50,679 nucleotides of DNA, from the IMG/VR virus record IMGVR_UViG_3300031578_000055, positions 1 to 50,679 of that record, one strand, 5' to 3'. Made by a program: the position numbers and the translations under genes. Each line of letters begins with the position of its first letter. Within the stretch, counting starts at the first letter, position 1. Under the pieces are notes generated by a model. The model saw only the letters and a program-made list of their open reading frames with translations, did no database searches and was not told the DNA's origin. Of this stretch, positions 24,364 to 46,660 are shown in pieces. This DNA comes from a virus (taxonomy: Duplodnaviria > Caudoviricetes).

Positions 24364-27300
24364 TTATTCTCCTTTCACAAAAAAATCTGTTACTTCAATC
24401 ACATTTGCTATGGTTGATATTGCCTCTGTATTATGTGATACAGAAATCAATTTCTTTTTACCAGCCAAATGTGAATTAATCATGCTATAAAAATCTGCTA
24501 CAACATTATTATCTAATGCACCATCCTGTTCATCAATAATACCATACATATAATTTCTACCTGTTCTTTTTATTACTGATGTATTAATCGCTTCCCTCAA
24601 TGCCGATGTTGACCAGACAGCCTGACCTCCGCTTACAACGGAAATACTCTTTACATCGGAAGCCCGGTTATCATGTACTAGAATTTTAAACTTTTCTGCA
24701 AGATTATTTTTACTGTCAAAATCCTGAGTTATTATTTCCACACTATATCTTGGCTGATAAGTTGATAAGAAATCATTTGCTTCTTGATTTATTACCGGAG
24801 CCACCAAAGACAATTCAAGAGCTTCAATCCCTTTTGGTGAGAATGCTTTTTCGATAGACTCCCATTCAGAAATATTATTTCTTGATATGCTGGTCTTCTC
24901 AGTTAATGTTTTAATCTTCTCCTCTCGTTGCACGTTTTTATTAAGGCGATCCTTCAGAGCTTCAATTTCGGCGGTTAAACGACCAATTCCGGTTGATGTG
25001 CTTGATATTTCTGTTTCTATTTCATATATTCTGGATCTAAGGTTATTATATGCTGTTATATCTATATCCTTTTTTTTATTTCTAAGAATTTCTATTTGTT
25101 TAGAGATTTCAGAAAGCCTTGTTTTTTTCTGAGAAATAGAAGTTTCAAGATCAATTTTTTTTGTCTCAAGAGTTTTTAAACCATCAATAATCATTTGGAG
25201 TTCACTTAATTTATGTGTATCAACTTTTAAATTGTCCATTTCTGATTTTAAATCTATCAAAGATTGTGGTATTTCTGGTTTTTTAGAAATTGATTCCTGT
25301 AGTTTTTTATATTTTTCTCTTTGTTTATCCAGATTTAATTCACATTCTTCTATTCTTGATTTTTTACCTAAGATTATTTCTTTGCATACTTTAATCTCAG
25401 ATAACATTATATCAATCTTTTTTTGTGCAGATGTTGATATTTTTTTGCAAAATTCGCAGGGATCATTTGCTGAAGTTACAACACTTTCTTTTACATTAAT
25501 AAGACCTTCATTTTCAGAAAGCTTATGTTTAGATTCATCAATAAGCGTTTTTATTTCATTAGCTTCAACTTTTATTACTTCAAGATTTTCATCAATTACA
25601 GTTTTTTTATTCTGCCATTCTTCAACTTGGTTGTTGAATTCCCCTTGAGCTTTAAAATAAGCTCCTGATGCAATATTAAGTTTAGTCTGTTGATCTAGTA
25701 GCTTTTTTAATTCAGCTTTATTAGAATCGGCATTTTCAAGAGTTGAGTTTATTTTGGGAAGTTTATACTCAAGAACAGAAACATCGGCTGTAAGATTTGT
25801 TGATTCAGCTGTAATAAAATCAACTTGATCCTGGATAGATTTATTTCCGTTAATATCTTTTTCATAAATCGATAAATCAGATTTAAAATGCCGGAGTGTT
25901 TCATTGGATCTTTCAAGGCTCAGTTTGTTGTCAGATTTTAAAACATCTTTTTCTTCTATTAGAATTTCAATTTCTTTTTTGCTTTCTTCAATGGATTCAA
26001 GTGTTTCAATTTCCCTGGTATCAAGTTCTATTTCTTTTTTTAATACTCCGACTTTTTCATGTGCATAATTTTTTAATTCTGATCTGTCCATACCTGCAAA
26101 CTCTGTGAATATTTTCCGGAGGTCTGTTTCTTTTGCATTTTCAAGGGAAGGATAATTATTGTTTTCCTTTTGTCCTCTAAAAGCACAAGTCATAAACATT
26201 TTAATACTACCGAATATTTCATTTACTGCATCATCAAACGGCGCTTTAGTTCCGGTTACGGTATCAATGGCTTTTCCGTTTATATCCATGTAATATTTTG
26301 CGGTTGGTGCTGTAAGTGTCGGATCAATCAAAATCTTCTGAGTTATTATATCTTTTCCATCTCGAAATCTTCTTAAGATCTGAGAATCTTTTAATTCGAA
26401 TAAAGATTTTAAATCAATACCTGTTGGAAGATGTATTGAAAAAGGTGTACAGAATCCCATATTAAAAGATTTCCCTGTTCCATTTTCCCCGATAATTAAA
26501 TTAGCTCCAGTAACAAAATCATTGAAATCTATTTTTATTTCTTCAACACCATTTTCAAGACCGGCTTTGCTACCCTTTAAATATAGATCAAGAAATTCAA
26601 AATTATGAGGTGTTATATGCTCTGTTTCTCCTCCGGTTTCTCTCTCAGATTCAGCTACTTTTAATAATATAGATTCTGGTACTTCTGGATCATATATTTT
26701 ATATAGATCTTCTAAAGTTTTACAGGCTTCATATTCTTCTATATCAACTCTAATGTTTTCTGTATGCTGGATACTGCAGGTTATTTTTGATAGTGGACCG
26801 ATGTTTACAGCCTCTTTTAATTCAGATAAGGACTGGTCACAATCAAATCCATCAGAAAATTCTTTATTACAATGAATATCGATCCAGACATTTGTATCTG
26901 CCATTACCGATTGTTTCATGATCTCAATATCAGAAACATCTTTAATTATATATTTCTGTCTCTCAAGTTCTCCATAATCAAATCGTTTTGATTCTTTGGT
27001 TACGGTATCAATAATATTAAATCCGGGTTTAAATCCAATATCACCCCATGTCATATGAGCACTTCCACCGTAATATTTTTGTAATAAATGCAGATGCCCG
27101 AATTGAATATAATCAGCTCCTATTCGGTTTAACATCTCTTCAGAATACATAAAATCGGTTGATCTAGGTTTTTGATCATCTCTAAATTTCATTCCAGCAA
27201 TATGACCATGACCCATAAAATGAACAGTTCCAGAATGACTTTTTGCAAGAGGAGCATAATATTTATCTATTATTTCGTTTACAAGATCATACTGCTTTTC

Positions 27301-27708
27301 ATTTATTTCCTGTTTTGATAAATCAGGATATTGACTGATTAAAAATGCCGGGGTTATTTCTGGAATACCTATAATTAATAAATCCCCTATTACATGATGT
27401 TTTCCAATATTGATTTCTTTCCATCCAATATCTTTAAATGCTGCATATGATCCCGGTGCATCATGTCCCGGAGTTCCAGATATAAAAAATACTGGTGCTG
27501 ACTCCTGCAAATCTCGACCCATTTGCAATATATCATCATAACTATTTTTGTCAGTTGCCATTAAAGGGCGATCGAAAAAATCACCTGCAATTGTAATTGC
27601 ATCAACTTTCTCAGATTTAGCTACTTCACATATTCTTTTAATATGTCCTTTCGATTCTTCCAGCCACTTTGGGCTGATGTGTAGATCCTGTGCTTTTAAT
27701 ATTTTCAT
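24364..27708 (-). CDS. sbcD-sbcC: Fused SbcD nuclease-SbcC ATPase (Mre11-Rad50-like)
   Basis: DLH, AGDFFD, GHD, GHLH phosphoesterase motifs; GENGTGKS, CEFC hook, VSGGQ, IIDEQDGALD, SH in one ORF. Confidence 0.9.
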   Translation of the reverse strand: MKILKAQDLHISPKWLEESKGHIKRICEVAKSEKVDAITIAGDFFDRPLMATDKNSYDDILQMGRDLQESAPVFFISGTPGHDAPGSYAAFKDIGWKEINIGKHHVIGDLLIIGIPEITPAFLISQYPDLSKQEINEKQYDLVNEIIDKYYAPLAKSHSGTVHFMGHGHIAGMKFRDDQKPRSTDFMYSEEMLNRIGADYIQFGHLHLLQKYYGGSAHMTWGDIGFKPGFNIIDTVTKESKRFDYGELERQKYIIKDVSDIEIMKQSVMADTNVWIDIHCNKEFSDGFDCDQSLSELKEAVNIGPLSKITCSIQHTENIRVDIEEYEACKTLEDLYKIYDPEVPESILLKVAESERETGGETEHITPHNFEFLDLYLKGSKAGLENGVEEIKIDFNDFVTGANLIIGENGTGKSFNMGFCTPFSIHLPTGIDLKSLFELKDSQILRRFRDGKDIITQKILIDPTLTAPTAKYYMDINGKAIDTVTGTKAPFDDAVNEIFGSIKMFMTCAFRGQKENNNYPSLENAKETDLRKIFTEFAGMDRSELKNYAHEKVGVLKKEIELDTREIETLESIEESKKEIEILIEEKDVLKSDNKLSLERSNETLRHFKSDLSIYEKDINGNKSIQDQVDFITAESTNLTADVSVLEYKLPKINSTLENADSNKAELKKLLDQQTKLNIASGAYFKAQGEFNNQVEEWQNKKTVIDENLEVIKVEANEIKTLIDESKHKLSENEGLINVKESVVTSANDPCEFCKKISTSAQKKIDIMLSEIKVCKEIILGKKSRIEECELNLDKQREKYKKLQESISKKPEIPQSLIDLKSEMDNLKVDTHKLSELQMIIDGLKTLETKKIDLETSISQKKTRLSEISKQIEILRNKKKDIDITAYNNLRSRIYEIETEISSTSTGIGRLTAEIEALKDRLNKNVQREEKIKTLTEKTSISRNNISEWESIEKAFSPKGIEALELSLVAPVINQEANDFLSTYQPRYSVEIITQDFDSKNNLAEKFKILVHDNRASDVKSISVVSGGQAVWSTSALREAINTSVIKRTGRNYMYGIIDEQDGALDNNVVADFYSMINSHLAGKKKLISVSHNTEAISTIANVIEVTDFFVKGE

Positions 27709-27775
27709 TTGCATCCTCTTTAATAATATAATCCTATAATTATATTATATTATAGAATTATATATAAATCAATTA

Positions 27776-37834: not shown

Positions 37835-39070
37835 ATGGGAAAAGACAACAGGCGTTCTGTTGACACTAAATTCTGGACTGATCCAGAAGTTGAGCAACTG
37901 ACAAAGAATGCCACTTATTTATTTAATTCACTATTAACATTCCCTGAAAATAATATGGCTGGAACCTATGAAATATCAGAAGGGAAAATGTCTTATTATA
38001 CTAAGATGAATAAAAATGAAATAAATGAAGCTTTTAAAGAATTGGAATATAAAAATAAAGTGCTTAGATTTAAAACATGGGTATCAATTAAAAATCATAT
38101 AAAAAATCAAAAACTTAACGGAGGAATGGCTATTTCTGTAGTTAAAGATTTATGTGATTGTCCTAATCCTGTTAAATTATGGTTGTTTTATCAGGCAAAT
38201 TCAGAGACTTTAGAGCCTTGGTTCCCTAAGCTTTTATTTAATGTCAATGCATATTTAGGGGAACAGAAAAAAAGATATGCAAATAGGATAGTAAAAGATA
38301 ACCCTAAGATAACCGTTATCGAAGCATTATCTAACTATGAGTTTAACCCTATGACAGAAGACAAGCTTTTGCAGATAATGGTTCAAAACCTCCCTTTAGA
38401 CACAAAAGAGCTTTCAAATCTTAACAGTATGATAACCCTTATCGAATGGTTAGATAACCCTTCGATGAATATAAAGAATAAAAGGGAATTAGAAAAGGAA
38501 TTAGAAGATATAAAAGGAAAAGGGAATAGTAAATTGATTTCGGATAACGTTGTATCCGAAGAGACAAAAATTTCTCCCTCTCCCTTCTCCGGTTTTATTC
38601 CTGAATCTAAAAAACAAAATCCTGATGCTACGATGTTTGAATCTAAAGATATTCTTTCAGAACGGATTACAACAGCCATAGAACATTGGAACACTAAGCC
38701 TAATCTTCAGAAATATAAATATAATGTTTTTAATATGAGAAATGTTGCTGATGTAAAAACTCAGTTTGATGTTTTCTCATTAGATGAAATATTGGGAGCT
38801 ATAAATAATTTATCAAAATATATAGATCGTGATGAAATGGTTTCAAAACAATTTGATAGATTTATTAAAAGTTCTTTGGATAGATGGGTTGATGATGCTA
38901 TGCCTTGGAAGCGATATGAAACCGAAGCTGACAAATCACCAAATCAAATTCAATTAGAAAAGTATGAGGAATATATAAGAACCTGTACAAGTGATTTATC
39001 AGAAGAACAATTAGCTCCAACATATGAGAAAATCAGAAAGGTTAAGAAATTGATCGAGGAGGAAGGATGA
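37835..39070 (+). CDS. Phage replication initiator (replisome organizer-like)
   Basis: N-terminal DTKFWTDPEV...LLT...GTYEIS winged-helix pattern; charged linker; internal repeats. Confidence 0.75.
   Translation: MGKDNRRSVDTKFWTDPEVEQLTKNATYLFNSLLTFPENNMAGTYEISEGKMSYYTKMNKNEINEAFKELEYKNKVLRFKTWVSIKNHIKNQKLNGGMAISVVKDLCDCPNPVKLWLFYQANSETLEPWFPKLLFNVNAYLGEQKKRYANRIVKDNPKITVIEALSNYEFNPMTEDKLLQIMVQNLPLDTKELSNLNSMITLIEWLDNPSMNIKNKRELEKELEDIKGKGNSKLISDNVVSEETKISPSPFSGFIPESKKQNPDATMFESKDILSERITTAIEHWNTKPNLQKYKYNVFNMRNVADVKTQFDVFSLDEILGAINNLSKYIDRDEMVSKQFDRFIKSSLDRWVDDAMPWKRYETEADKSPNQIQLEKYEEYIRTCTSDLSEEQLAPTYEKIRKVKKLIEEEG
38297..38462 (+). repeat. Iteron-like repeats inside initiator gene
   Basis: GATAACC at 38297, 38308, 38431, 38453; GATAACC(G/C)TTATCGAA twice. 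Confidence 0.55.
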
Positions 39071-39345
39071 ATCCTGCATTAGAATTGGCGTTCGAAGCTG
39101 GAAAATGGGCTGGACAAGTAGAGCTTGAAGAGCATTTCGACAGGGAGCAATATTCACAGGTTGTCTTTGAATCTATATATTCGAAAAAAACATCAATGCC
39201 GGCTATTATGGAATCAACTGGTAAAACTGTAACTATAAATTTAAGATCGAATGCATGGCGAATTGGTGTTAAAAAATCATCCAAGGAATATCTTGAAAAA
39301 GCTGAGAAAATATTATCTTATCTCAAAGGGGAACTTCATGGATAA
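39067..39345 (+). CDS. Hypothetical protein
   Basis: ATGA overlap with initiator. Confidence 0.7.
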   Translation: MNPALELAFEAGKWAGQVELEEHFDREQYSQVVFESIYSKKTSMPAIMESTGKTVTINLRSNAWRIGVKKSSKEYLEKAEKILSYLKGELHG

Positions 39346-40084
39346 AGAATCTTTCCTATCCGACATGATAAACCGGTTTGGTTCTAAAAAAAATGAAACA
39401 AAGAAAAAAGAATATTTGGAAGAGCTCCACGTTTTTGCAAATATGTGTCCAGAACAAAACCTTCATGCTGTTTATAATTATGCTGTTTCTGCAGATGGAT
39501 ATCCTACATTAAAAAAACTATTTAGGTTTGCACGAGAACATAATTTTATCCCTGAAACAGATAAATACAGTGAAGATATAATTGTTTATTATAAATGCAA
39601 CGGGTTCTATAAATCAGTAGCAGATGGAGGAGGAAAATATAGTAAAAAGAAATTCGAATGTAATACAAGTTATTCTATAAATTCTGGTGGCTGTCCTAAT
39701 TGTGGATCCACTTCTGGAACTATTGTAAAATGTTTTAAAAGTATCCCGGAAGAAGTTATATTTCTTAAAAATGATTGTTTCAGATGTAAATTATATTTAC
39801 CTGAAAATGGGAGTAAAATTTTATATTTATACGGACCCGAATGTGGAGTGCATGGATCAAGGCATTCTCCTAAAACTGATCAGGTTTGTAAATCTTGCAG
39901 ATGTAAGCCCTGTTGTATTGATACCAGGGAATTTAAATATCAAACAAATCATTACATGGAAAAAGTAAGAGATCCCAAACACGAGATTATGCAGCCGTGG
40001 TTAAAAAATAGTCGTAAACCAGGAGATCATATTGCAATATTAGAAAAGCTTGAAATGTCAAAAAAATATAATAATGGCGGTTGA
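39338..40084 (+). CDS. Cys-rich hypothetical protein (possible replication accessory)
   Basis: ATG 39338 after AAGGGG; several CxxC motifs. Confidence 0.65.
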   Translation: MDKESFLSDMINRFGSKKNETKKKEYLEELHVFANMCPEQNLHAVYNYAVSADGYPTLKKLFRFAREHNFIPETDKYSEDIIVYYKCNGFYKSVADGGGKYSKKKFECNTSYSINSGGCPNCGSTSGTIVKCFKSIPEEVIFLKNDCFRCKLYLPENGSKILYLYGPECGVHGSRHSPKTDQVCKSCRCKPCCIDTREFKYQTNHYMEKVRDPKHEIMQPWLKNSRKPGDHIAILEKLEMSKKYNNGG

Positions 40085-40085
40085 T

Positions 40086-40268
40086 ATGACAAATGAAGAA
40101 TATTTAAGATCAGAATATAAAAGTATGTTAACAGAGGTAAAGAATTCTTTTCATTTGATTAAAATACAGAGAGAAGAAATTAAACGATTAAAATCAAGTA
40201 ATCGTTCTTATCTGGAAATAGTTGTAGAACTCGGTCAAGAATTAAGGGAGAAAGGAAAATACTTATGA
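40086..40268 (+). CDS. Small coiled-coil protein
   Basis: ORF in track; start uncertain. Confidence 0.55.
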   Translation: MTNEEYLRSEYKSMLTEVKNSFHLIKIQREEIKRLKSSNRSYLEIVVELGQELREKGKYL

Positions 40269-40308
40269 TGAAGGCAATAAGCTTTGTTTTAGTTCTAAAT
40301 AATTAAAC

Positions 40309-40324
40309 AGCCTCTTCGGAGGCT
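40309..40324 (+). promoter_or_regulatory. UUCG hairpin abutting RBS (copy 2 of 3)
   Basis: AGCCTC-TTCG-GAGGCT then AAAGGAGG. Confidence 0.7.
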
Positions 40325-40338
40325 AAAGGAGGTAAATA

Positions 40339-40512
40339 ATGAAATATGCAATTATTAGAGTCAATAAACATGAATCTGTAAATGTTGAGTTTGACATAAA
40401 AAATATTGCTGAAAAATTTTGTATTGTCTGCAACAAAGGATTAACTAAAAAAGATGACAATTATTTGATTGTAGAGAGGAGAAATCATGAAAGAGAAAAG
40501 AGAACAGTTTAA
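40339..40512 (+). CDS. Small hypothetical protein (not in ORF track)
   Basis: AAAGGAGG RBS; 57 aa. Confidence 0.7.
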   Translation: MKYAIIRVNKHESVNVEFDIKNIAEKFCIVCNKGLTKKDDNYLIVERRNHEREKRTV

Positions 40513-40645
40513 TTTAAGAATGCCCGAACCGCTTAAAGGCAGGGGGAAAAAAGAAGCTGCATTTTATGGGATAAATATGTCTCAATTTATTGTTCAGGCT
40601 ATAAATGAAAAACTTGAAAAAATAGATATGCGTATAACAGACTAA
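40487..40645 (+). CDS. Ribbon-helix-helix protein (not in ORF track)
   Basis: QFNLRMPEPLK...AAFYGINMSQFIVQAINEKL; GAGGAG RBS. Confidence 0.8.
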   Translation: MKEKREQFNLRMPEPLKGRGKKEAAFYGINMSQFIVQAINEKLEKIDMRITD

Positions 40646-40691
40646 GATGTGCAATGCGGATAATAGTAGTTATGTGGAAAAGGGGGCTAAG

Positions 40692-41042
40692 ATGGAATGG
40701 ATTAGTGTTGAAAAAGAACTTCCGATTGAAGAAGATTATTATTTAGTATCGAGTAATTATGGAATAGTTGTTCGTAGTTTTAATGTTTATCATAATTGCT
40801 GGGACGATGAACAGGCAGATGACTATTGGTGCGATGCAGTAGGTGGGAATGTTACACACTGGATGCCACTACCACCGCCCCCTTCATCACATAACAGCGA
40901 ATATAAGCAATGCGAGTTTTGCCACGATACAAGGTTGTTGTGTAGTGGTGCCGGAGAGTGTGACCATGATGGTAGAGACTGTAGCGAAAGTGATAATTGT
41001 GGTGAATATACACCGGCACTATGTAAGCATTGTACAAATTAG
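40692..41042 (+). CDS. DUF551-like protein with Cys-rich tail (cassette A)
   Basis: MEWISVEKELP...VTHWMPLP; reads through the att site. Confidence 0.85.
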   Translation: MEWISVEKELPIEEDYYLVSSNYGIVVRSFNVYHNCWDDEQADDYWCDAVGGNVTHWMPLPPPPSSHNSEYKQCEFCHDTRLLCSGAGECDHDGRDCSESDNCGEYTPALCKHCTN

Positions 41043-41098
41043 CGCACTGCATATATTCGCAGAACGTTATACACAATTTGTGTCTAAAGGAGAATATA

Positions 41099-41263
41099 AT
41101 GAAAGTTGATTTTAAACAGAAGGCTACATTGGTAATTACACCGGAAAATGAAATAGAAAGTTATGCACTTAGAAAATGGCATGAAGGCTATGTTTCAATA
41201 GAGCCTTCTGAAGAATGTTTATGTGTAGAGTCAATTACAATTGACGACACAAACAATGTATAA
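41099..41263 (+). CDS. Hypothetical protein (cassette B)
   Basis: AAAGGAG RBS; stop lies in GTATAAC. Confidence 0.75.
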   Translation: MKVDFKQKATLVITPENEIESYALRKWHEGYVSIEPSEECLCVESITIDDTNNV

Positions 41264-41331
41264 CAGGGTTTATATGTCATTGATTACAACATCATATAAG
41301 CCGGAAACGTTATAGGCAATTGGAGGGTTAA

Positions 41332-41538
41332 ATGAGAGGAAAAGGTTTACTCGAATGGGAATGGGTTGCACATATTGAATATTCTGATTATGCCGATTCT
41401 TTGTTACATTTTAGTAGTTTAGATGCTACTGATATATTATCTGCAATAGCACATGTTTATCGGCATTGTCGGGAAAGTGGAGTTTTTGAAGTTATTTCTT
41501 TAACGCAACTGCCTATAACAGCAGATACACGGAAATAA
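41332..41538 (+). CDS. Hypothetical protein (cassette C)
   Basis: GGAGG RBS just after GTTATAG. Confidence 0.75.
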   Translation: MRGKGLLEWEWVAHIEYSDYADSLLHFSSLDATDILSAIAHVYRHCRESGVFEVISLTQLPITADTRK

Positions 41539-41591
41539 CAAGTGACTGCATATAAACCCGAAACGTTATGTACAATATTTTGGAGGAGTAA

Positions 41592-41834
41592 ATGGACAAT
41601 AGGCATATGGATATTATATATGATGCATTGTGTAATGACGATGACCCTGTTTTTTCTAGCGAGACTGTTACAGAAATGTATAATTATATCAAAGAATTGG
41701 AAGCTAAAATAAACCTGCTCCAAAATATTATTCATAACAACAGTTTAACAAAATCATGCAGCGGTTGTTGGGGGGAGAATAAGATTTGTTATGGTTGTAT
41801 AGATTTTAGTGGTTACAAAAGCATGACTTCGTAA
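41592..41834 (+). CDS. Hypothetical protein with CxxC..CxxC tail (cassette D)
   Basis: GGAGG RBS; reads through att site. Confidence 0.75.
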   Translation: MDNRHMDIIYDALCNDDDPVFSSETVTEMYNYIKELEAKINLLQNIIHNNSLTKSCSGCWGENKICYGCIDFSGYKSMTS

Positions 41835-41872
41835 AACTGCGAAACGTTATGTACAATATTTTGGAGGATTAA

Positions 41873-42097
41873 ATGAGTAGAAAACCAATAGAATCTTTTC
41901 ATATTGCAGGGATAAAATATGCCTGTTGTCAAGAATCAGATGTTAGAGAGCTTGAAGCTGAACTTGACCAGCTCCAAAACACTATACATAACATCGATTA
42001 TTCGAAATGTCCAGATTGTGAAGGGTACGGGCAAAGCATAAAAGGCTGGACGATAATGCCCTGTAAAAAGTGTAAGGGTACGGGACAAATCGTATAA
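41873..42097 (+). CDS. Hypothetical protein with CxxCxGxG tail (cassette E)
   Basis: GGAGG RBS; CPDCEGYG...CKKCKGTG; shares ELEA...LQN.IHN with cassette D. Confidence 0.75.
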   Translation: MSRKPIESFHIAGIKYACCQESDVRELEAELDQLQNTIHNIDYSKCPDCEGYGQSIKGWTIMPCKKCKGTGQIV

Positions 42098-42235
42098 TCG
42101 CGAAACGTTAGGCGAAATTAGGAGTCAGACATTGTTTAGTAGCATGGACGGCTGGTAAAATCTATTGTAGTGGATGCTGTCAATATATCAAAACTTCGCA
42201 TAATCGCAGAACGTTATGAATAATAAGAGGATCAA

Positions 42236-42430
42236 ATGGTAGACAACGTTAAAGATATAATTAAAGCGTATTGTTCAGTGCATTATCCCGGAGCAGATGG
42301 ATTATGTAATGATGGTTGTGGATGTTCTTTTGACGATTTGCAACCGTGCAGTAGTTCATGTATGCATTGTGTTCCAGCAAAATGGAATGGAGAAGAAGAG
42401 ATTTTTATAGAAATAGACAAATATCAATAA
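42236..42430 (+). CDS. Cys-rich small protein (last cassette-like unit)
   Basis: GAGG RBS after GTTATGA; GADGLCNDGCGC..DDLQPC. Confidence 0.75.
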   Translation: MVDNVKDIIKAYCSVHYPGADGLCNDGCGCSFDDLQPCSSSCMHCVPAKWNGEEEIFIEIDKYQ

Positions 42431-42502
42431 ATGAGTATATTATTAACATAAGGATGAACAATGGATACCATAAACCCGATTAAAAACCCAATTTTGATAA
42501 AG

Positions 42503-42531
42503 TTGACAATTACCCGTACAAGGGGTAATAT
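42503..42531 (+). promoter_or_regulatory. Promoter with inverted repeat, likely leaderless transcript
   Basis: TTGACA-17-TAATAT; ATTACCC-N7-GGGTAAT; ATG 7 nt downstream. Confidence 0.7.
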
Positions 42532-42537
42532 CATTTT

Positions 42538-43065
42538 ATGAATAAAATATGGAAAGAAATTAGGGGATATGATGGGTTTTATAAGATTTCTAATTGTGGA
42601 GATGTATATAATTCGAAATGGGATCGTCCAGTAAAGCAACATATAAACAAATCAAACGGATATTATGAAGTCTGCTTATACAAGAAGCAAAAACGAAAAC
42701 ACCATACAATACATAGATTAGTTGCTCTTCATTTTGTTGGTATTTTATCTGGCCGTGAATTTGTAAATCATAAAGATTCTGATAAACATAACAATGATTC
42801 AACAAACCTTGAATGGGTTACTAAGTCTGAGAATGGTATTCACGCAGGAAAAGCAGGATTACTTTCTGTTAATCTAAGAAAAAATGTAAATCAATTAACC
42901 AAAGAAGGGAATTTTATCAAAACACATATTAGCCTTTCTTCTGCAGCTAGAGAATTAAACCTGCAAAAAACAAATATATCATCTTGTTGTTATGGTAAAT
43001 CAAAAACATGTGGAGGATTCTTATGGGAATTCACTCAAAAGGATATAAACCGTGATCAATATTAA
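42538..43065 (+). CDS. NUMOD4-HNH-NUMOD1 homing endonuclease
   Basis: WKEIRGYDGFYKISNCG, IHRLVA, VNHKD...NLEWVT..EN, C-terminal SLSSAAREL...GGFLW. Confidence 0.92.
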   Translation: MNKIWKEIRGYDGFYKISNCGDVYNSKWDRPVKQHINKSNGYYEVCLYKKQKRKHHTIHRLVALHFVGILSGREFVNHKDSDKHNNDSTNLEWVTKSENGIHAGKAGLLSVNLRKNVNQLTKEGNFIKTHISLSSAARELNLQKTNISSCCYGKSKTCGGFLWEFTQKDINRDQY

Positions 43066-44329
43066 GCAATTCGATCCAAAATCAAACCCGATAGTAGTTA
43101 AATGCACCGCAGCTGATCTATTACCCATAGATAAAATAGTAGGATTCCAGGGTAATTTAAAAAAACTCTCAACTGTAAATCAGAATAAATTAATTAGTAG
43201 TATTCTTATTCATGGCTTTATTGCTCCTTTTTTCTTATGGGATGATGGATTTGAGTTGAGAGTTCTAGATGGAACACAGCGATTAAAAACTATTCTCGCC
43301 CTTCAAAAACGAGGGTGGGATGTCCCGTTGCTTCCCGTTGTATACATTGAAGCAGATAACGAAAAGGATGCACGAGCGAAACTTCTTAAAATAACATCAG
43401 CTTATGGAGAATTCGATTTAGATGAACTCCAGTCATGGATTAACGATATGGATGATGATATAAGTGAATCTATTAGGTTGGTGGATCAGGAGATTGAACT
43501 TGCATTAACTCCGGAAGCTGCTGAAACAGTTGGTGATGAAGAAATTCCGGAAGAAATTATTCCTGTTACGAAATTAGGTGATTTATGGGAACTTGGAGAA
43601 CATAGGCTATTGTGTGGGAGTTCAACGGATATTAATTCTGTCAAGAAATTAATTAGAGAAAATAAAGTTGATTGTGTATTTTCCGATCCTCCATATGGAA
43701 TAGATGTTGTTAAGTCTTCTCAAGTTGGTGGTGGAGGAGAAACCAAGTTCGGTAAAGGTGGTGGTGGAAAAATTGTTGATTCAAATGAGTATAAAAAAAT
43801 AATTGGAGATGAAACAATAGATACTGCTAAAGAATTTTATGAATTATGTATTAGCATGGATTTTAAGAATATAGTATTATGGGGCGGTAATTATTACACG
43901 GCTTTTATTCCTCCTTCTCGATGTTGGATTATCTGGGATAAAGAAATGACAGGGAATTTTTCTGAAGCAGAAATGGCGTGGACTTCTTTTTCAAAAGGGG
44001 GAATTAAAGTTTTTAAATTCTTGTGGAATGGCCTTTCTCGTGAAGGAAATAGGATTGATGAATTAAAGTCAAGAATTCATCCTACCCAAAAACCAGTCGG
44101 GTTGTTTGCCAATATATTTGAAAGATTTGATGGCTTTAAATCCTATTTTGATGGGTTTTTAGGATCTGGAAGTACTTTAATAGCATGTGAAAAAACAAAT
44201 AATATATGTTATGGAACAGAATTAGAACCATCTTATTGTGACTTGATAGTAATCAGATACAAAACATGGTGTGAGAACAACGGAAAGACACCTATAGTAA
44301 AACTTAATGGTGAGGTCTGGAATGGCTAA
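43052..44329 (+). CDS. ParB-N domain fused to N4C/N6A DNA methyltransferase
   Basis: LDGTQR ParB-like N-terminus; GDLWELGEHRLLCG, DPPY, HPTQKP, FLGSGSTLIA. Confidence 0.9.
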   Translation: MINIKQFDPKSNPIVVKCTAADLLPIDKIVGFQGNLKKLSTVNQNKLISSILIHGFIAPFFLWDDGFELRVLDGTQRLKTILALQKRGWDVPLLPVVYIEADNEKDARAKLLKITSAYGEFDLDELQSWINDMDDDISESIRLVDQEIELALTPEAAETVGDEEIPEEIIPVTKLGDLWELGEHRLLCGSSTDINSVKKLIRENKVDCVFSDPPYGIDVVKSSQVGGGGETKFGKGGGGKIVDSNEYKKIIGDETIDTAKEFYELCISMDFKNIVLWGGNYYTAFIPPSRCWIIWDKEMTGNFSEAEMAWTSFSKGGIKVFKFLWNGLSREGNRIDELKSRIHPTQKPVGLFANIFERFDGFKSYFDGFLGSGSTLIACEKTNNICYGTELEPSYCDLIVIRYKTWCENNGKTPIVKLNGEVWNG

Positions 44330-44759
44330 AGTTAAAAACCCAGGAGGAACACCGGCAAATCTTATGCCGGCTTGGAGTGCTACAAATCAGCCTAAAAATA
44401 AAAACGGAAGAAAACCGTCCAGCATTAAAAAATATATCAAAGATAATAATCTCAATGCTACTGATATCTCTGTCCTTGCTAAATATATTCTTCCATTAAA
44501 CCAGGATCAATTAACTGCTTTAATTAGAGATGAAAAAATTCCTTTCGTTGTCAGGATATTTGTTAAATCAGTATTAGAAGATTTTAAACGTGGGAATCTT
44601 TCTAATATTATGACTTTGATTGACAGGGCTGTTGGTAAACCGAAAGAAACAGTTGATGTAAACGAGAATTCAAATAAAACTACTTTAAATGTTGATTATT
44701 CTGATATGTCTGAGGATGAAAAAAGAGAATTGTTTTTCCAGAAGATTAAGAGAGATTGA
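44322..44759 (+). CDS. terS: Terminase small subunit
   Basis: NQP...GRKP N-terminus, LIDRAVGKPKE; directly before terL. Confidence 0.75.
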   Translation: MAKVKNPGGTPANLMPAWSATNQPKNKNGRKPSSIKKYIKDNNLNATDISVLAKYILPLNQDQLTALIRDEKIPFVVRIFVKSVLEDFKRGNLSNIMTLIDRAVGKPKETVDVNENSNKTTLNVDYSDMSEDEKRELFFQKIKRD

Positions 44760-46300
44760 TTTTGAATTTTCCATGGGAAGAACGAATAGAAATAGTTGAT
44801 GATATAAAACTATTAAGAGTTTATTTTGATGCTTATAAAATAGGTGGATCAGAAGCAGTAATAGACTTTATTTCAAGATTTTGTTTGACATTTGACCCTA
44901 GAAAAGAAAAAAATAGAGTAATCCCTTTTGAGCTATTTAAAAAACAAGAAGAATACATTCGGTGGCTTTGGCTAAGATATGTCAACAGAGAGGATGGAGT
45001 AGTTGACAAGTGTAGAGGGATAGGAATGTCCTGGATGAATGCTGGATTTTCAGCTTTTTTAATTTTATTTCAACAAGCAGTAACTATATCAATGTATACG
45101 TATAAAGCAGAAGAATGTCATTCATTGGGGAATATTGATACTTTATTAGAAAAGGTAATATTTATTTGTGATAATTTGCCAGAGTCATTTGTGACCGGAA
45201 TAGAACATAAACTAATGCAGATCAAAAATCATAAAAATGGATCTATAATTGTAGGAAAATCTGGTGATTCTCCGGGGCGTGGTGGTAGATCATCAATATA
45301 TTTTTTAGATGAAGCAGCTTTTTATCCTCGTGCCGATTCAATAGAAGCAGCAGTTTCAAGAAATGCAGATTGCAAAATATGGGGATCAACTCACCATGGA
45401 ACAAATACACTTTTTTATAGAAAATGTACTTCTGGAATAAATCCTGTAATAACATTTGACTGGTGGGAACTCAAAGAAATGTACAACCAGGAATGGTACG
45501 ACCGGGAAAAAGAAAAAGCTGTTGCAGAAGGAACACTTCATATTTTTAAACAAGAAGTTGAGCGTGATGCATCTGCAAGTCTTGAAGCATGTGTTGTTCC
45601 GTCCGAATGGGTTAATGCTGCAAAACGATGTACTGCAAATCTTGACGGAAAGATAATTGCTTCCCTTGACCCAGCCAATGAAGGAGGCGATGTTCACGGT
45701 TTTGTTGTAATAAATGGTAACATGCCTATCTATGCAGAAGAGTCCGGTCTTGGTGATCCTGCAGATGCAACAGATATGTTTTTCTGGAAAGCGGTTGAGA
45801 TGGGAGCAGAGGAATTCAGGTATGACCCGATCGGTGTTGGTGTTGGTGTAGCAATTAGAATGAAACAGATAATTGAAGAGTTGAAAACTAATGATCCTGG
45901 GAATAAAGCTTTAAAAGTAAAAATAAAACCGTGGTCGGCTTCCGGTGCTGTATTACGTCCAGACCAAAGAGATTACGCCGAAAAAGCGAACGGTGATTTC
46001 TTCGAAAATGCAAAAGCTCAAGCATGGTGGAAAGTAAGATCAGAATTTTTGAATACTTACCGGTCTGTAAACAATAAAGATTGTGAAGAAGATCAATTAA
46101 TTTCTTTTCCTGGAAAAATAGATAGATCTTTAGAAAAAATGATAATGGAATTATCTCAACCTCAGTTTACTAATTCAAAACGGGGTAAAACTATGATCGA
46201 TAAAAAACCAAAAGGAAGCAAATCCCCGAACCTTGCCGATGCTTATGTTATGTGTAGAGCTGAAGTTGATGTTGAATGGATGGCATGGTCTACAGTTTGA
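44756..46300 (+). CDS. terL: Terminase large subunit
   Basis: KCRGIGMSW Walker A variant, FLDEAAF, LDPA nuclease Asp, SPNLADAY. Confidence 0.95.
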   Translation: MILNFPWEERIEIVDDIKLLRVYFDAYKIGGSEAVIDFISRFCLTFDPRKEKNRVIPFELFKKQEEYIRWLWLRYVNREDGVVDKCRGIGMSWMNAGFSAFLILFQQAVTISMYTYKAEECHSLGNIDTLLEKVIFICDNLPESFVTGIEHKLMQIKNHKNGSIIVGKSGDSPGRGGRSSIYFLDEAAFYPRADSIEAAVSRNADCKIWGSTHHGTNTLFYRKCTSGINPVITFDWWELKEMYNQEWYDREKEKAVAEGTLHIFKQEVERDASASLEACVVPSEWVNAAKRCTANLDGKIIASLDPANEGGDVHGFVVINGNMPIYAEESGLGDPADATDMFFWKAVEMGAEEFRYDPIGVGVGVAIRMKQIIEELKTNDPGNKALKVKIKPWSASGAVLRPDQRDYAEKANGDFFENAKAQAWWKVRSEFLNTYRSVNNKDCEEDQLISFPGKIDRSLEKMIMELSQPQFTNSKRGKTMIDKKPKGSKSPNLADAYVMCRAEVDVEWMAWSTV

Positions 46301-46325
46301 CAGTATTGTTGATATGAATTATATT
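46297..46325 (+). promoter_or_regulatory. Promoter overlapping terL stop
   Basis: TTGACA-17-TATATT. Confidence 0.75.
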
Positions 46326-46331
46326 TAATAT

Positions 46332-46420
46332 ATCCTTTCTTTTAATGGAGTGCGGCACTGCTGCAAACCCACTCCAAATATTGATTTTAGACCAGAGAAT
46401 GATCCCTCTGGTCTTTTTTT
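46332..46420 (+). ncRNA. Candidate trans-acting antisense sRNA
   Basis: Promoter to terminator with no convincing ORF; 5' 17 nt complementary to 37813-37829; hairpin 46346-46376. Confidence 0.6.
46389..46420 (+). terminator. Intrinsic terminator
   Basis: AGACCAGAG-N8-CTCTGGTCT then T-run. Confidence 0.85.
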
Positions 46421-46440
46421 ATTTATAATTAAAATAAGTG

Positions 46441-46469
46441 TTGACTCTTTACCGCTATAGCGTTATATT
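46441..46469 (+). promoter_or_regulatory. Sigma70-type promoter with palindromic operator
   Basis: TTGACT-17-TATATT with CGCTATAGCG; near copy of 4010-4038. Confidence 0.8.
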
Positions 46470-46498
46470 AAAGATAGATCAAAGGAAAGGAAGTAAAG

Positions 46499-46660
46499 AT
46501 GAACGATTTAAATAAAAACATAGAGGCCCTTACAGAAAAGCAAAGAAAAACAGTTAAGACATTAATTCAGCTTGGAGATAGTAAAGAGCTTGCATATAAA
46601 ACAGTTGTTAATACTAAAGAACATAATTCTGATATGTACGCTTTAGCTTATTATAGCTAA
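46499..46660 (+). CDS. Small hypothetical protein (not in ORF track)
   Basis: AAAGGA RBS; 53 aa MNDLNKNIEAL...AYYS. Confidence 0.7.
   Translation: MNDLNKNIEALTEKQRKTVKTLIQLGDSKELAYKTVVNTKEHNSDMYALAYYS

Follow-up and report, generated by a model that had tools for sequence, protein, structure and literature searches.

Can a recombination site of the integron type, a kind of site regarded as non-coding punctuation that moves whole genes, also be a part of the genes that it separates? The question is raised by a viral DNA of 50,679 nucleotides (the window throughout this text), which is one whole IMG/VR virus record (IMGVR_UViG_3300031578_000055; 50,679 bp, completeness estimate 95%), and which carries at 40.6-42.5 kb six to seven tiny co-oriented cassettes, only 106-395 bp long, whose limits are attC-like hairpin sites. 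We consider it probable that this region is a phage-borne integron-like cassette array, with the layout of a cluster of attC sites lacking integron integrases (CALIN), in which the loops of some hairpins are coding and translated, and in which the fronts and tails of small proteins have entered new pairings at the R'' box. The punctuation would then be translated, with a module boundary inside the gene, and the same machinery could build proteins from parts, not only reorder genes.

Each site of the array runs from a YATAAC box (R'') through 1-2 nt, a left arm (L''), a loop, a right arm (L') and RRAAC to GTTA, the beginning of the next box (R'). According to the first-pass annotation of this DNA, three open reading frames (ORFs; 40692-41042, 41592-41834 and 41873-42097) continue in the same frame through CAT AAC, translated there as His-Asn, and through the left arm, encode CxxC pairs in the loop and end at or in the right arm; the list of ORFs and their translations bear this out. 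The features concerned are these:

40692-41042 (longer reading from 40647), + strand: ORF1, a DUF551 front up to Asn 40893-40895, then a 48-residue tail with a module of the pattern CxxC..CxGAGxCDxDG..C..NCGEY..CxxC (Cys8) in the loop of site S1
40889-41072, + strand: site S1, with R'' ACATAAC (40889-40895), A, L'' (40897-40914), a 128-nt coding loop, L' (41043-41060), AGAAC and R' GTTATAC (41066-41072); arms of 18 nt, score 12 in a gapless scan; the predicted fold forms the stem
41592-41834, + strand: ORF4, a front up to Asn (41736-41738), then the tail NSLTKSCSGCWGENKICYGCIDFSGYKSMTS in the loop of site S4
41732-41852, + strand: site S4, with R'' TCATAAC, AA, L'' (41741-41759), a coding loop, L' (41821-41839, with the stop TAA), CGAAAC and R' GTTATGT (41846-41852); arms of 19 nt, score 10 in the gapless scan
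41873-42097, + strand: ORF5, a front up to Asn (41990-41992), then the tail IDYSKCPDCEGYGQSIKGWTIMPCKKCKGTGQIV with two CxxCxGxG motifs
41986-42113, + strand: site S5, with R'' ACATAAC, AT, L'' (41995-42012), a coding loop, L' (42083-42100, with the stop TAA), CGAAAC and R' GTTAGGC (42107-42113); arms of 18 nt, score 9 in the gapless scan; the predicted fold forms the stem

ORF1 passes CAT AAC at 40890-40895, continues as NSEYKQCEFC...CKHCTN (encoding NSEYKQCEFCHDTRLLCSGAGECDHDGRDCSESDNCGEYTPALCKHCTN), and ends with a TAG (41040-41042) that abuts the L' arm. ORF4 continues from its CATAAC (41733-41738) through CSGC..CYGC to a TAA (41832-41834) within L', and ORF5 from its CATAAC (41987-41992) through CPDCEGYG..CKKCKGTG to a TAA (42095-42097), which is again within L'. 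The coding loops of the three ORFs hold four to eight Cys codons each. The His-Asn pair itself is trivial as far as the letters go, being the CATAAC consensus read in one of three phases. As had also been claimed, the short sites end the ORF at or soon after TAAC: ORF2 stops at the TAA, and ORF3 and an Arc-like ORF, which are in another phase, stop at most five codons on. When the interiors of the loops of 128, 62 and 70 nt were shuffled, the number of trials out of 20000 without a stop in this phase was 790, 1916 and 3637, respectively, which puts the joint chance of three open loops at about 7e-4; the observed Cys count was reached in 3, 496 and 149 of 20000 trials.

Searches with exact site motifs led to arrays of the same design on further viral contigs. 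Among the close arrays, L017 lies on a 1.5-kb metagenome contig, L019 has at least eight cassettes and lies just upstream of structural genes in a record that is 56% complete, and L020 lies in a complete 87.8-kb phage. The DNA of the window resembles these arrays only in pieces of sites, 24-33 nt long and 100% identical, and the cargo is unrelated. We tabulated the reading phase of 20 cassettes of four close arrays, taking the Shine-Dalgarno sequence after each R' box as the reference from which the ORF was defined. In all ten cases of a loop of at least 79 nt, the upstream ORF passed through it in the xxT|AAC phase; nine of these ten ORFs either ended no more than 7 nt short of the right arm or entered it. 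At the nine sites with loops of at most 37 nt, the ORF ended before TAAC in five cases, at the TAA of R'' in one, a few codons past it in two, and beyond the whole site in one. Altogether, 12 of the 14 ORFs that reach TAAC do so in the xxT|AAC phase, though a second phase would also read through. The stop codon of several sites comes from the consensus of the right arm (CGYATAATCGC, CGTAAAAC). As all tail-bearing sites share one codon phase, an in-frame junction is possible between any front and any tail.

Two further loops were noted in other contigs. On the - strand of the distant array L105, the 67-nt loop of the site at 205 has no stop in this phase, follows a 37-codon open frame and would give a hydrophobic tail, NIVYSTLLFVFQIIVFHIF..., which may be, judging by its composition, a membrane-anchor tail module. 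In another viral contig (L012, 38-175) a gene of the opposite strand starts within the site loop and exits through the left arm and the R'' box, which suggests that loops can also hold gene starts in reverse orientation.

The first-pass annotation had further proposed that loop codons, if the loops are coding, should carry the mark of protein-level constraint. A comparison of the dN/dS type between the S1 tail and its copy in L017 gave just that, and not a lack of constraint: 42 of 150 nt differ, with 9, 11 and 22 differences at the three codon positions, the nonsynonymous differences per site (pN) amount to 0.185 and the synonymous ones (pS) to 0.77 (pN/pS about 0.24), and 8/8 Cys are kept. 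The first 28 nt of the S1 module (the end of R'', the L'' arm and little more) and the end of the module with L', the spacer and R' are identical to those of L017, with arms at 100% identity. As the arms are identical and pN is below pS in the interior, the arms appear to be held as DNA and the interior as protein. Upstream of the ACATAAC of S1 only 16 of 60 nt are identical between the two, which means that the gene fronts are different and unrelated.

An exhaustive HMMER search with the 50-residue tail found 16 proteins at E <=0.001, in which the Cys8 module stands at the C-end, at the N-end or in the middle of otherwise unrelated proteins. Its recurrence in 16 proteins indicates a real mini-domain and not a by-product of the hairpin. 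A Pfam search found no family that matches the Cys8 tail, and the mini-domain appears, on the strength of this conserved pattern, to be an unannotated domain family that merits an entry of its own. It was seen N-terminally or centrally, without a junction of the hairpin type, in P0029, P0031, P0038, P0039 and P0042 (117-236 aa). The tail of ORF5 contains CPDCEGYG and CKKCKGTG and matches DnaJ_CXXCXGXG (PF00684) with E 2.4e-5 and 25 bits, which is under the cut-off of 32.7. The earlier description of the tails as C-terminal metal-binding domains therefore holds in part: the Cys motifs and one sub-threshold Pfam match speak for it, and not all tails in the related arrays are Cys-rich. From their Cys patterns, the tails of the window probably bind zinc.

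A further check proposed in the first-pass annotation was whether one N-terminal domain occurs with different tails after His-Asn. This was found for the front of ORF1, which matches DUF551 (PF04448) at 47.1 bits (cut-off 22; E 4.5e-12; positions 1-67 of the 68 of the profile, residues 17-79 of the 131-aa reading). The match ends in ...HWMPLPP, directly before SSHN. Of 25 ORF1 homologues found, 16 were aligned, giving 17 sequences with that of the window. Most DUF551 proteins in the alignment end right after PLPxPP, and seven, including that of the window, run on through ...PPPPS[STL][HS]N into different tails. Over the alignment, the fronts with other tails after [HS]N share 60-80% identity with the window protein, and the tails other than that of the window are of at least five kinds. 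The tail is Cys8 in the window, helical and ending in KHFS in P0002, two different CxxC/CxC tails in P0021 and P0024, and 37 residues without Cys in P0023; P0001 and P0004 have short extensions. The extension of P0001, AERCTKQTGGKK, equals the expected reading of a spacer, an R' box, a leader and a Shine-Dalgarno sequence, which suggests, at the level of the peptide only, that this gene ends in a site without arms or loop.

The reverse holds as well. The Cys8 tail stands behind five unrelated fronts (DUF551 of the window, P0003, P0005, P0028 and cassette 2 of L017), always with the junction xxN|[SN][ED]Y. The helical tail family (SDYAK...KHF[AS]) follows DUF551 in P0002, whereas its member in cassette D of L019, 43% identical over 37 residues, follows an unrelated front. 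The residues before the junction are alike in several fronts (LQNTSSN, LQNIIHN, LQNTIHN); this likeness is not protein homology, and arises because the outer arm of the cassette, complementary to the leader and the Shine-Dalgarno sequence, leaves its footprint there. As judged from the aligned proteins, fronts and tails are separate modules that were re-paired at the R'' boundary among related phages, in two tail families and one front family. The swapping of tails is thus borne out for the first of the three window tails, and those of ORF4 and ORF5 have no homologues on which it could be seen. As for the site chimerism by which the swapping was explained, the junctions do lie at a box of the site, and the mechanism is read from the positions of the junctions only.

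How far do the sites themselves resemble those of integrons? The rest of the array, and the arms that close each cassette, are as follows:

40487-40645, + strand: Arc-like ORF, which passes GTATAAC (40623-40629) in another phase and stops within five codons
40651-40677, + strand: array-start half-site, with an L'-like arm, AGTA and the first R' box GTTATGT (40671-40677); a GTATAAC box stands at 40623-40629
41099-41263, + strand: ORF2, cassette 2, which ends on the TAA of R'' GTATAAC (41258-41264)
41258-41315, + strand: site S2, with a short non-coding loop: GTATAAC, A, GGGTTTATATG ... CATATAAGCCGG, AAAC, GTTATAG; the fold forms the stem
41332-41538, + strand: ORF3, cassette 3, which crosses R'' CTATAAC (41513-41519) in another phase and stops five codons on
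41513-41571, + strand: site S3, degenerate or chimeric, with R'' CTATAAC, a weak left arm, L' CATATAAACCC (41549-41559), GAAAC and R' GTTATGT; 5/11 arm pairs, predicted fold not stable
42107-42219, + strand: remnant of cassette 6, with a 5' leader like those of the other GTTAGGCGAAAT cassettes, the last codons of a tail of the ...NFA* type, an L' arm, AGAAC and R' GTTATGA (42213-42219)
42236-42430, + strand: ORF7, the last cassette, a 64-aa Cys-rich protein
about 42437-42480, + strand: degenerate last site, found by eye, TATTAAC ... CATAAACCCGA, with AACGTTA missing after it
40671-40689/40877-40895, + strand: outer arms, made of R' with the leader and of the sequence ending in R'', with cassette-specific complementarity
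41066-41084/41246-41264, 41309-41322/41506-41519, 41565-41588/41715-41738 and 41846-41866/41972-41992, + strand: further outer-arm pairs of the same pattern

A family of direct repeats (...CATATAA.CCC GAAAC GTTAT...) recurs between genes in six copies spaced by 243-281 bp, and AAC and GTT are present at every site of the window. A gapless scan for TAAC...GTTA hairpins recovered the three long sites, whose arms measure 18-19 nt, and gave 10 matches in the window on both strands, compared with 0-5 in 20 block shuffles. Moreover, outer inverted repeats join each R' and its leader to the R'' end of its own cassette over 14-24 nt, with 84-93% complementarity (in the first cassette, 73% over 37 nt). 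To quantify the pairing, we used 21 R'-anchored sites of four arrays, which were not selected by pairing, and excluded one AACGTTA inside ORF7. The L arms of a site paired with each other at 9.29/11 positions, versus 6.56 in 420 non-own pairings, and a pairing of at least 10 was reached by 14/21 own and 44/420 non-own combinations. For R' with the following 7 nt, the mean match was 9.57/14 positions to the R'' of its own cassette, 7.48 to that of the same hairpin and 7.70 to those of other cassettes; in the heptamers of the window, 34/35 nt match the own 5' R', versus 26/35 with the adjacent 3' R'. In this preference of R' for the R'' within its own cassette we see the circular-permutation signature of integron cassettes, here with longer arms. 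As in canonical attC, the L''/L' stem is imperfect and variable in sequence, yet complementary (S3, with 5/11, is the exception), and R'' is complementary to the 5' R' of the same cassette.

The left arm of S2 (41266-41276) is complementary at 11/11 positions to the right arm of S3 (41549-41559), with cassette 3 skipped, and S3 is nearly without a left arm. From this pairing it looks as if cassette 3 sits inside a former single site, or as if S2 and S3 were chimeric. The remnant of cassette 6 has no R'' and no TAAC at all, and its 25-26 nt ACTTCGCATAATCGCAGAACGTTA are identical to two sites of L019.

At the start of the array, the core GCAATGCG.ATA..A...AGTTA is common to the window (40651-40677), L019 (3881-3898) and L020 (134-151), and the flanks upstream of it are unrelated. 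This half-site is, by its sequence and place, a candidate entry (attI-like) site. A search of viral contigs with the array-start pattern returned only two already known arrays, and one with the leader pattern AACGTTATATTCAATTTT returned eight new loci, none with consecutive AACGTTA boxes that could enter the tabulation of cassettes; the sites of these loci were also inspected.

Other functions of the repeats were also considered. A reading as promoters gave 12 promoter-like sites with 11.9 expected, and a reading as terminators was rejected, as neither of the two terminator-like hairpins lay at a site. A likeness of the right half-site to sigma-70 promoters or to dif/Xer sites was dropped on account of a spacing that does not fit. 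An Rfam search of the sites found no known RNA family; Rfam holds no attC family. We also observed that the outer arm within the coding region (LQN..HN codons; 41565-41588/41715-41738 and 41846-41866/41972-41992) is complementary to the cassette's own leader, including the Shine-Dalgarno sequence. In the mRNA such an arm could mask the ribosome-binding site, to judge by this complementarity.

The window has no intI with attI beside the array, as a canonical integron would, and its sites follow a grammar of their own, five to seven of them in 1.9 kb with no integrase. A recombinase does accompany one distant array: some 0.7 kb from L011, in divergent orientation, there is a gene for a 285-aa Xer-like tyrosine recombinase, whose scores are under the cut-offs for XerA (188.6 vs 220) and for the integron integrase family (156 vs 265). 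Single sites of the same design with near-identical arms (..TAAC A GCGAATATG .. CATATTCGC AGAAC GTTA..) were found in three chromosomes, namely those of Marispirochaeta and of the metagenome-assembled genomes of a member of Spirochaetia and one of Desulfobacterales. These were the only three real sites in a genome scan whose 52 pattern matches are, by our estimate, no more than expected by chance. All three site-bearing genomes encode IntI above the NCBIfam cut-off (381-400 bits vs 265), as did 0/14 control genomes. In each of the three chromosomes 287 kb or more separate the site from intI, and the six 20-kb flanks of the three intI genes contain no site of this design in a gapless scan, which would miss canonical bulged attC. 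We class the region as one that works like an integron cassette array, and not as canonical attC; it is not filed under the latter because the central spacer and the extrahelical bases differ and the integrase is absent. The sites are, by their layout and pairing, presumably recombination substrates of the integron kind, and the tails, judging by frame and constraint, are presumably translated.

Independent contigs came from three metagenome runs (X1-X3). A 492-nt contig of X2 is about 86% like 40668-40900 and unlike the window beyond 40668, three bases before the R' box (40671); a 151-nt contig of the same run covers 41739-41849 with five differences and is unlike directly after GTTA, and a 237-nt contig is identical to 41522-41758. 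A 153-nt contig of X3 covers 41877-42029 with one difference. Parts of the stretch are without cover in the contigs of X2 and X3, which proves nothing. A loose contig end before 41046 is the loop of the short site of L017. Apart from this, in contigs of X1 and X2 the segment 42632-42652 leads back to 40436, at the end of 40386-40436, across 32 intervening letters of other sequence, and additional contigs stack on 40386-40419; it seems that another genome in these samples links an HNH-like start to a relative of the ORF at 40339-40512.

Several observations weigh against the reading as an integron-like array with coding loops. In all sites found, the spacer is 1-2 nt on the left and 5-6 nt on the right (AGAAC, GAAAC, CGAAAC), while canonical attC has about 5 nt on both strands, and the stems are gapless, with mismatches only, and lack the extrahelical bases of canonical attC. 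The strict RYYYAAC occurs in 0/5 R'' boxes (ACATAAC, GTATAAC, CTATAAC, TCATAAC, ACATAAC), and the strict GTTRRRY in 1/7 R' boxes (GTTAGGC). The folds of the single strand are weak, with z-scores from -2.1 to +0.4, and S1, S2 and S5 form the drawn stem and S3 and S4 do not. No tyrosine recombinase (PF00589) was found in the window at E up to 1, nor in the complete 87.8-kb phage of L020 or the 56%-complete record of L019, and the data examined contain no recombination event, circle or variant junction. The joints of contigs at 40913/41044 and 40915/41037 are probably short-loop sites of other arrays with shared arms. On the protein side, searches with ORF4 and ORF5 returned only self-matches and no homologues, and the tails of P0001 and P0004 may be mere read-through. 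In an AlphaFold2 model of ORF1 the predicted local distance difference test score of the tail is only 62-66, compared with about 93 for the front; the model is compatible with a metal-dependent mini-domain and proves nothing. In the close array L019, the short-loop site B is read through with a chance-like extension. Finally, among 14 sites of four distant arrays (six in L011, three each in L105 and L109, two in L102), only one or two have a loop that is open in phase and extends an upstream ORF of at least 30 codons; the ORFs there mostly stop at the TAA of R'', and loops of 60-100 nt are non-coding. As the loops of distant arrays are mostly non-coding, coding loops are a habit of one sub-family and not of every site.

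With these reservations, the reading that we favour would work as follows. The array would have no recombinase gene of its own, and its folded sites would offer two positions for cargo: the body from an R' box (GTTA...) to the next R'' box (...TAAC), and the loop between the L'' and L' arms. At three sites of the window both positions would be filled and fused. The body would supply the leader, the Shine-Dalgarno sequence, the start codon and the front of a small protein; translation would cross R'' (with AAC as Asn) and the L'' arm in one fixed phase and continue in the loop, which would encode a Cys-rich mini-domain of 32-48 residues, probably zinc-binding, with the stop in or just before the L' arm. 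Classical exchange at G|TTA would move whole cassettes, which would explain the R'/R'' rule, and a second exchange at the mirror-image box TAA|C would separate the front from the tail. The enzyme would be supplied in trans by the host or by a co-infecting element, the candidates being an Xer-like recombinase of the L011 type, a host Xer or a host IntI.

We regard it as evenly balanced whether the exchange is site-specific strand exchange at R'', and as rather unlikely that it is short-homology recombination. The DUF551 front is joined to tails that differ in their first codons and left arms, so that the shared sequence is barely more than the 7-nt box, which favours a site-specific cut. As a tentative extension, of which we are doubtful, the system might be a natural counterpart, at the level of DNA, of exon shuffling, in which TAA|C on one strand and G|TTA on the other are the exchange points, and in which gene fronts with leader, start and N-domain, and gene ends with mini-domain and stop, are separate mobile modules in one phase, recombined in trans into new small proteins. 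If true, this would be a cheap route for phages to diversify small accessory proteins, and a natural precedent for the use of engineered coding attC sites in domain shuffling. As the array lies among early or accessory genes, its position suggests host-takeover or anti-defence roles for the small proteins. In practice, arrays of this kind will mislead gene callers and attC finders.

Could the same patterns arise without a site-specific substrate? The cassettes may be ordinary small phage genes with zinc-ribbon C-termini, whose boundary or linker sequences are conserved and serve general recombination, phage-encoded or by way of recombination-dependent replication, with no site-specific enzyme at work and the hairpin being no substrate, as with the promoter-stem-loop cassettes of T4 and the modular evolution of phages. 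We consider this unlikely. It fits the lack of a recombinase in the window and in the complete relative, the site halves of 24-33 nt that are 100% identical between arrays and might offer short homology, the weak folds, and the SbcC/SbcD-like nuclease of the phage, of a type used in recombination-dependent replication. However, the tails that follow the DUF551 front with its terminal ...HN start with SEY, SDY, AER and KKL, and the homology shared at these junctions would be only the R'' box of about 7 nt; the L''/L' and R'/R'' arms co-vary within modules, which linker homology does not require; and the same site design stands beside a divergent Xer-like recombinase in L011. A second alternative keeps the recombination and changes its source: the sites would be true attC sites from bacterial integrons, recombined by a host IntI during infection, and the coding loops would be large variable terminal structures. 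The same-design sites in three bacterial chromosomes that all encode IntI (0/14 controls) agree with it, as does the recombination by IntI1 of 5/6 attC sites of virulent phages, given in the part of the paper available to us (Qi et al. 2023, PMC9892861). We hold it less likely than general recombination, as no such site lies in the six 20-kb intI flanks (gapless scan), the chromosomal sites are at least 287 kb from intI, only 3/52 pattern matches are real, 52 being by our estimate no more than chance would give, the unpaired central spacer and the extrahelical bases are missing, and the strict box consensus is found in only 0/5 R'' and 1/7 R' boxes. Moreover, crossover at R' alone cannot re-pair fronts and tails. 

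There is also the simplest view, that the loops are non-coding, and that the ORF extensions and Cys pairs are accidents of AT-rich sequence. The read-through of one short-loop site of L019 with no sign of function, and the non-coding loops of 60-100 nt in distant arrays, are what it would lead one to expect. Against it stand the joint probability of three open loops (about 7e-4), a pN/pS of about 0.24 with all Cys kept, the recurrence of the tail in 16 proteins, the two CxxCxGxG motifs of ORF5, and the single phase of 10/10 long loops in the close arrays, and we find it scarcely credible.

The integron-like array that we propose can be set beside several known systems. In shufflons (Rci and the sfx sites of R64), and with Gin of Mu and Cin of P1, the sites lie inside a gene, and a constant N-terminal part gains alternative C-terminal parts. 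Those shufflons and tail-fibre segments work by inversion within one genome, with the cognate recombinase adjacent and the alternatives in opposite orientations. In the window, unlike in shufflons, the modules are all co-oriented, there is no recombinase, and the variation is between genomes and not a matter of switching; a reading as a shufflon or as invertible C-terminal segments was rejected, with all ORFs and sites on the + strand and no recombinase. Palindromic elements of Rickettsia were reportedly described by Ogata et al. in 2000 as inserted in frame in protein genes and translated. There one repeat occurs in many genes, whereas in the window only the arms are shared and each loop holds a different, selected C-terminal module.

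Among integron-related systems, clusters of attC sites occur in phages, including virulent ones, according to the accessible part of the report in which IntI1 recombined 5/6 sites (Qi et al. 2023, PMC9892861). As far as they are described there, these phage CALINs resemble the array of the window in their co-oriented small cassettes, in hairpin sites closed by ...AAC/GTT..., in the absence of a phage integrase, and in an R'' that matches its own 5' R'. The window differs from them, within the same portion of the source, by the spacer bulge of 1-2/5-6 nt, the lack of extrahelical bases, the outer arms of 14-24 nt and the cassettes of 106-395 bp, and by loops of 60-130 nt that would be translated as the C-terminal module of the upstream ORF; neither coding loops nor a re-pairing of protein parts is mentioned in that portion. 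Synthetic attC sites have been placed inside coding sequence and tested with IntI1, with a variable terminal structure of 3-21 nt, and are usable as peptide linkers that connect protein domains; the range in natural class 1 attC is 3-100 nt (Nivina et al. 2020, PMC7439510, in the portion available to us). As there, one stretch of DNA is both hairpin site and reading frame. Compared with what that portion of PMC7439510 describes, which includes no natural coding loops, the site in the window is natural, its loop would hold a whole mini-domain, and comparative data show re-paired modules. A literature search, supplements aside, found no natural loops that encode protein modules and no re-pairing of such modules; Tables S1 and S2 of Qi et al. 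may list comparable sites.

The genome that carries the array encodes a large terminase, a portal, a tail sheath, a DnaD-like replisome organiser and an SbcC/SbcD-like nuclease, and is therefore that of a tailed phage. The array belongs to a group of very small + strand genes, with replication genes on one side and genes for an HNH endonuclease, a ParB-methylase and the terminase on the other. A megablast search of 38000-46500 against GenBank phages gave zero matches, a blastn search of site S1 against the same phages gave a single 28-nt match at chance level, and a search of viral contigs with ORF1 gave one weak relative. The motif GAAACGTTA is absent from all six loci recovered as relatives through the ParB-methylase, and the array is therefore not conserved together with the backbone.

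Some neighbouring genes deserve mention. On the - strand, 24364-27714 encodes a 1116-aa fusion of an SbcD-like phosphoesterase and an SbcC-like part, of the PHROGs family 'palindrome-specific endonuclease', in the same phage that bears many hairpin sites. Directly upstream of the array, 39251-40084 encodes a 277-aa protein with many CxxC pairs and without a Pfam family. At the other end, the gene for an HNH/NUMOD homing-type endonuclease (42538-43065) follows directly after the broken last site (42437-42540), and this endonuclease gene may therefore have displaced the end of the array.

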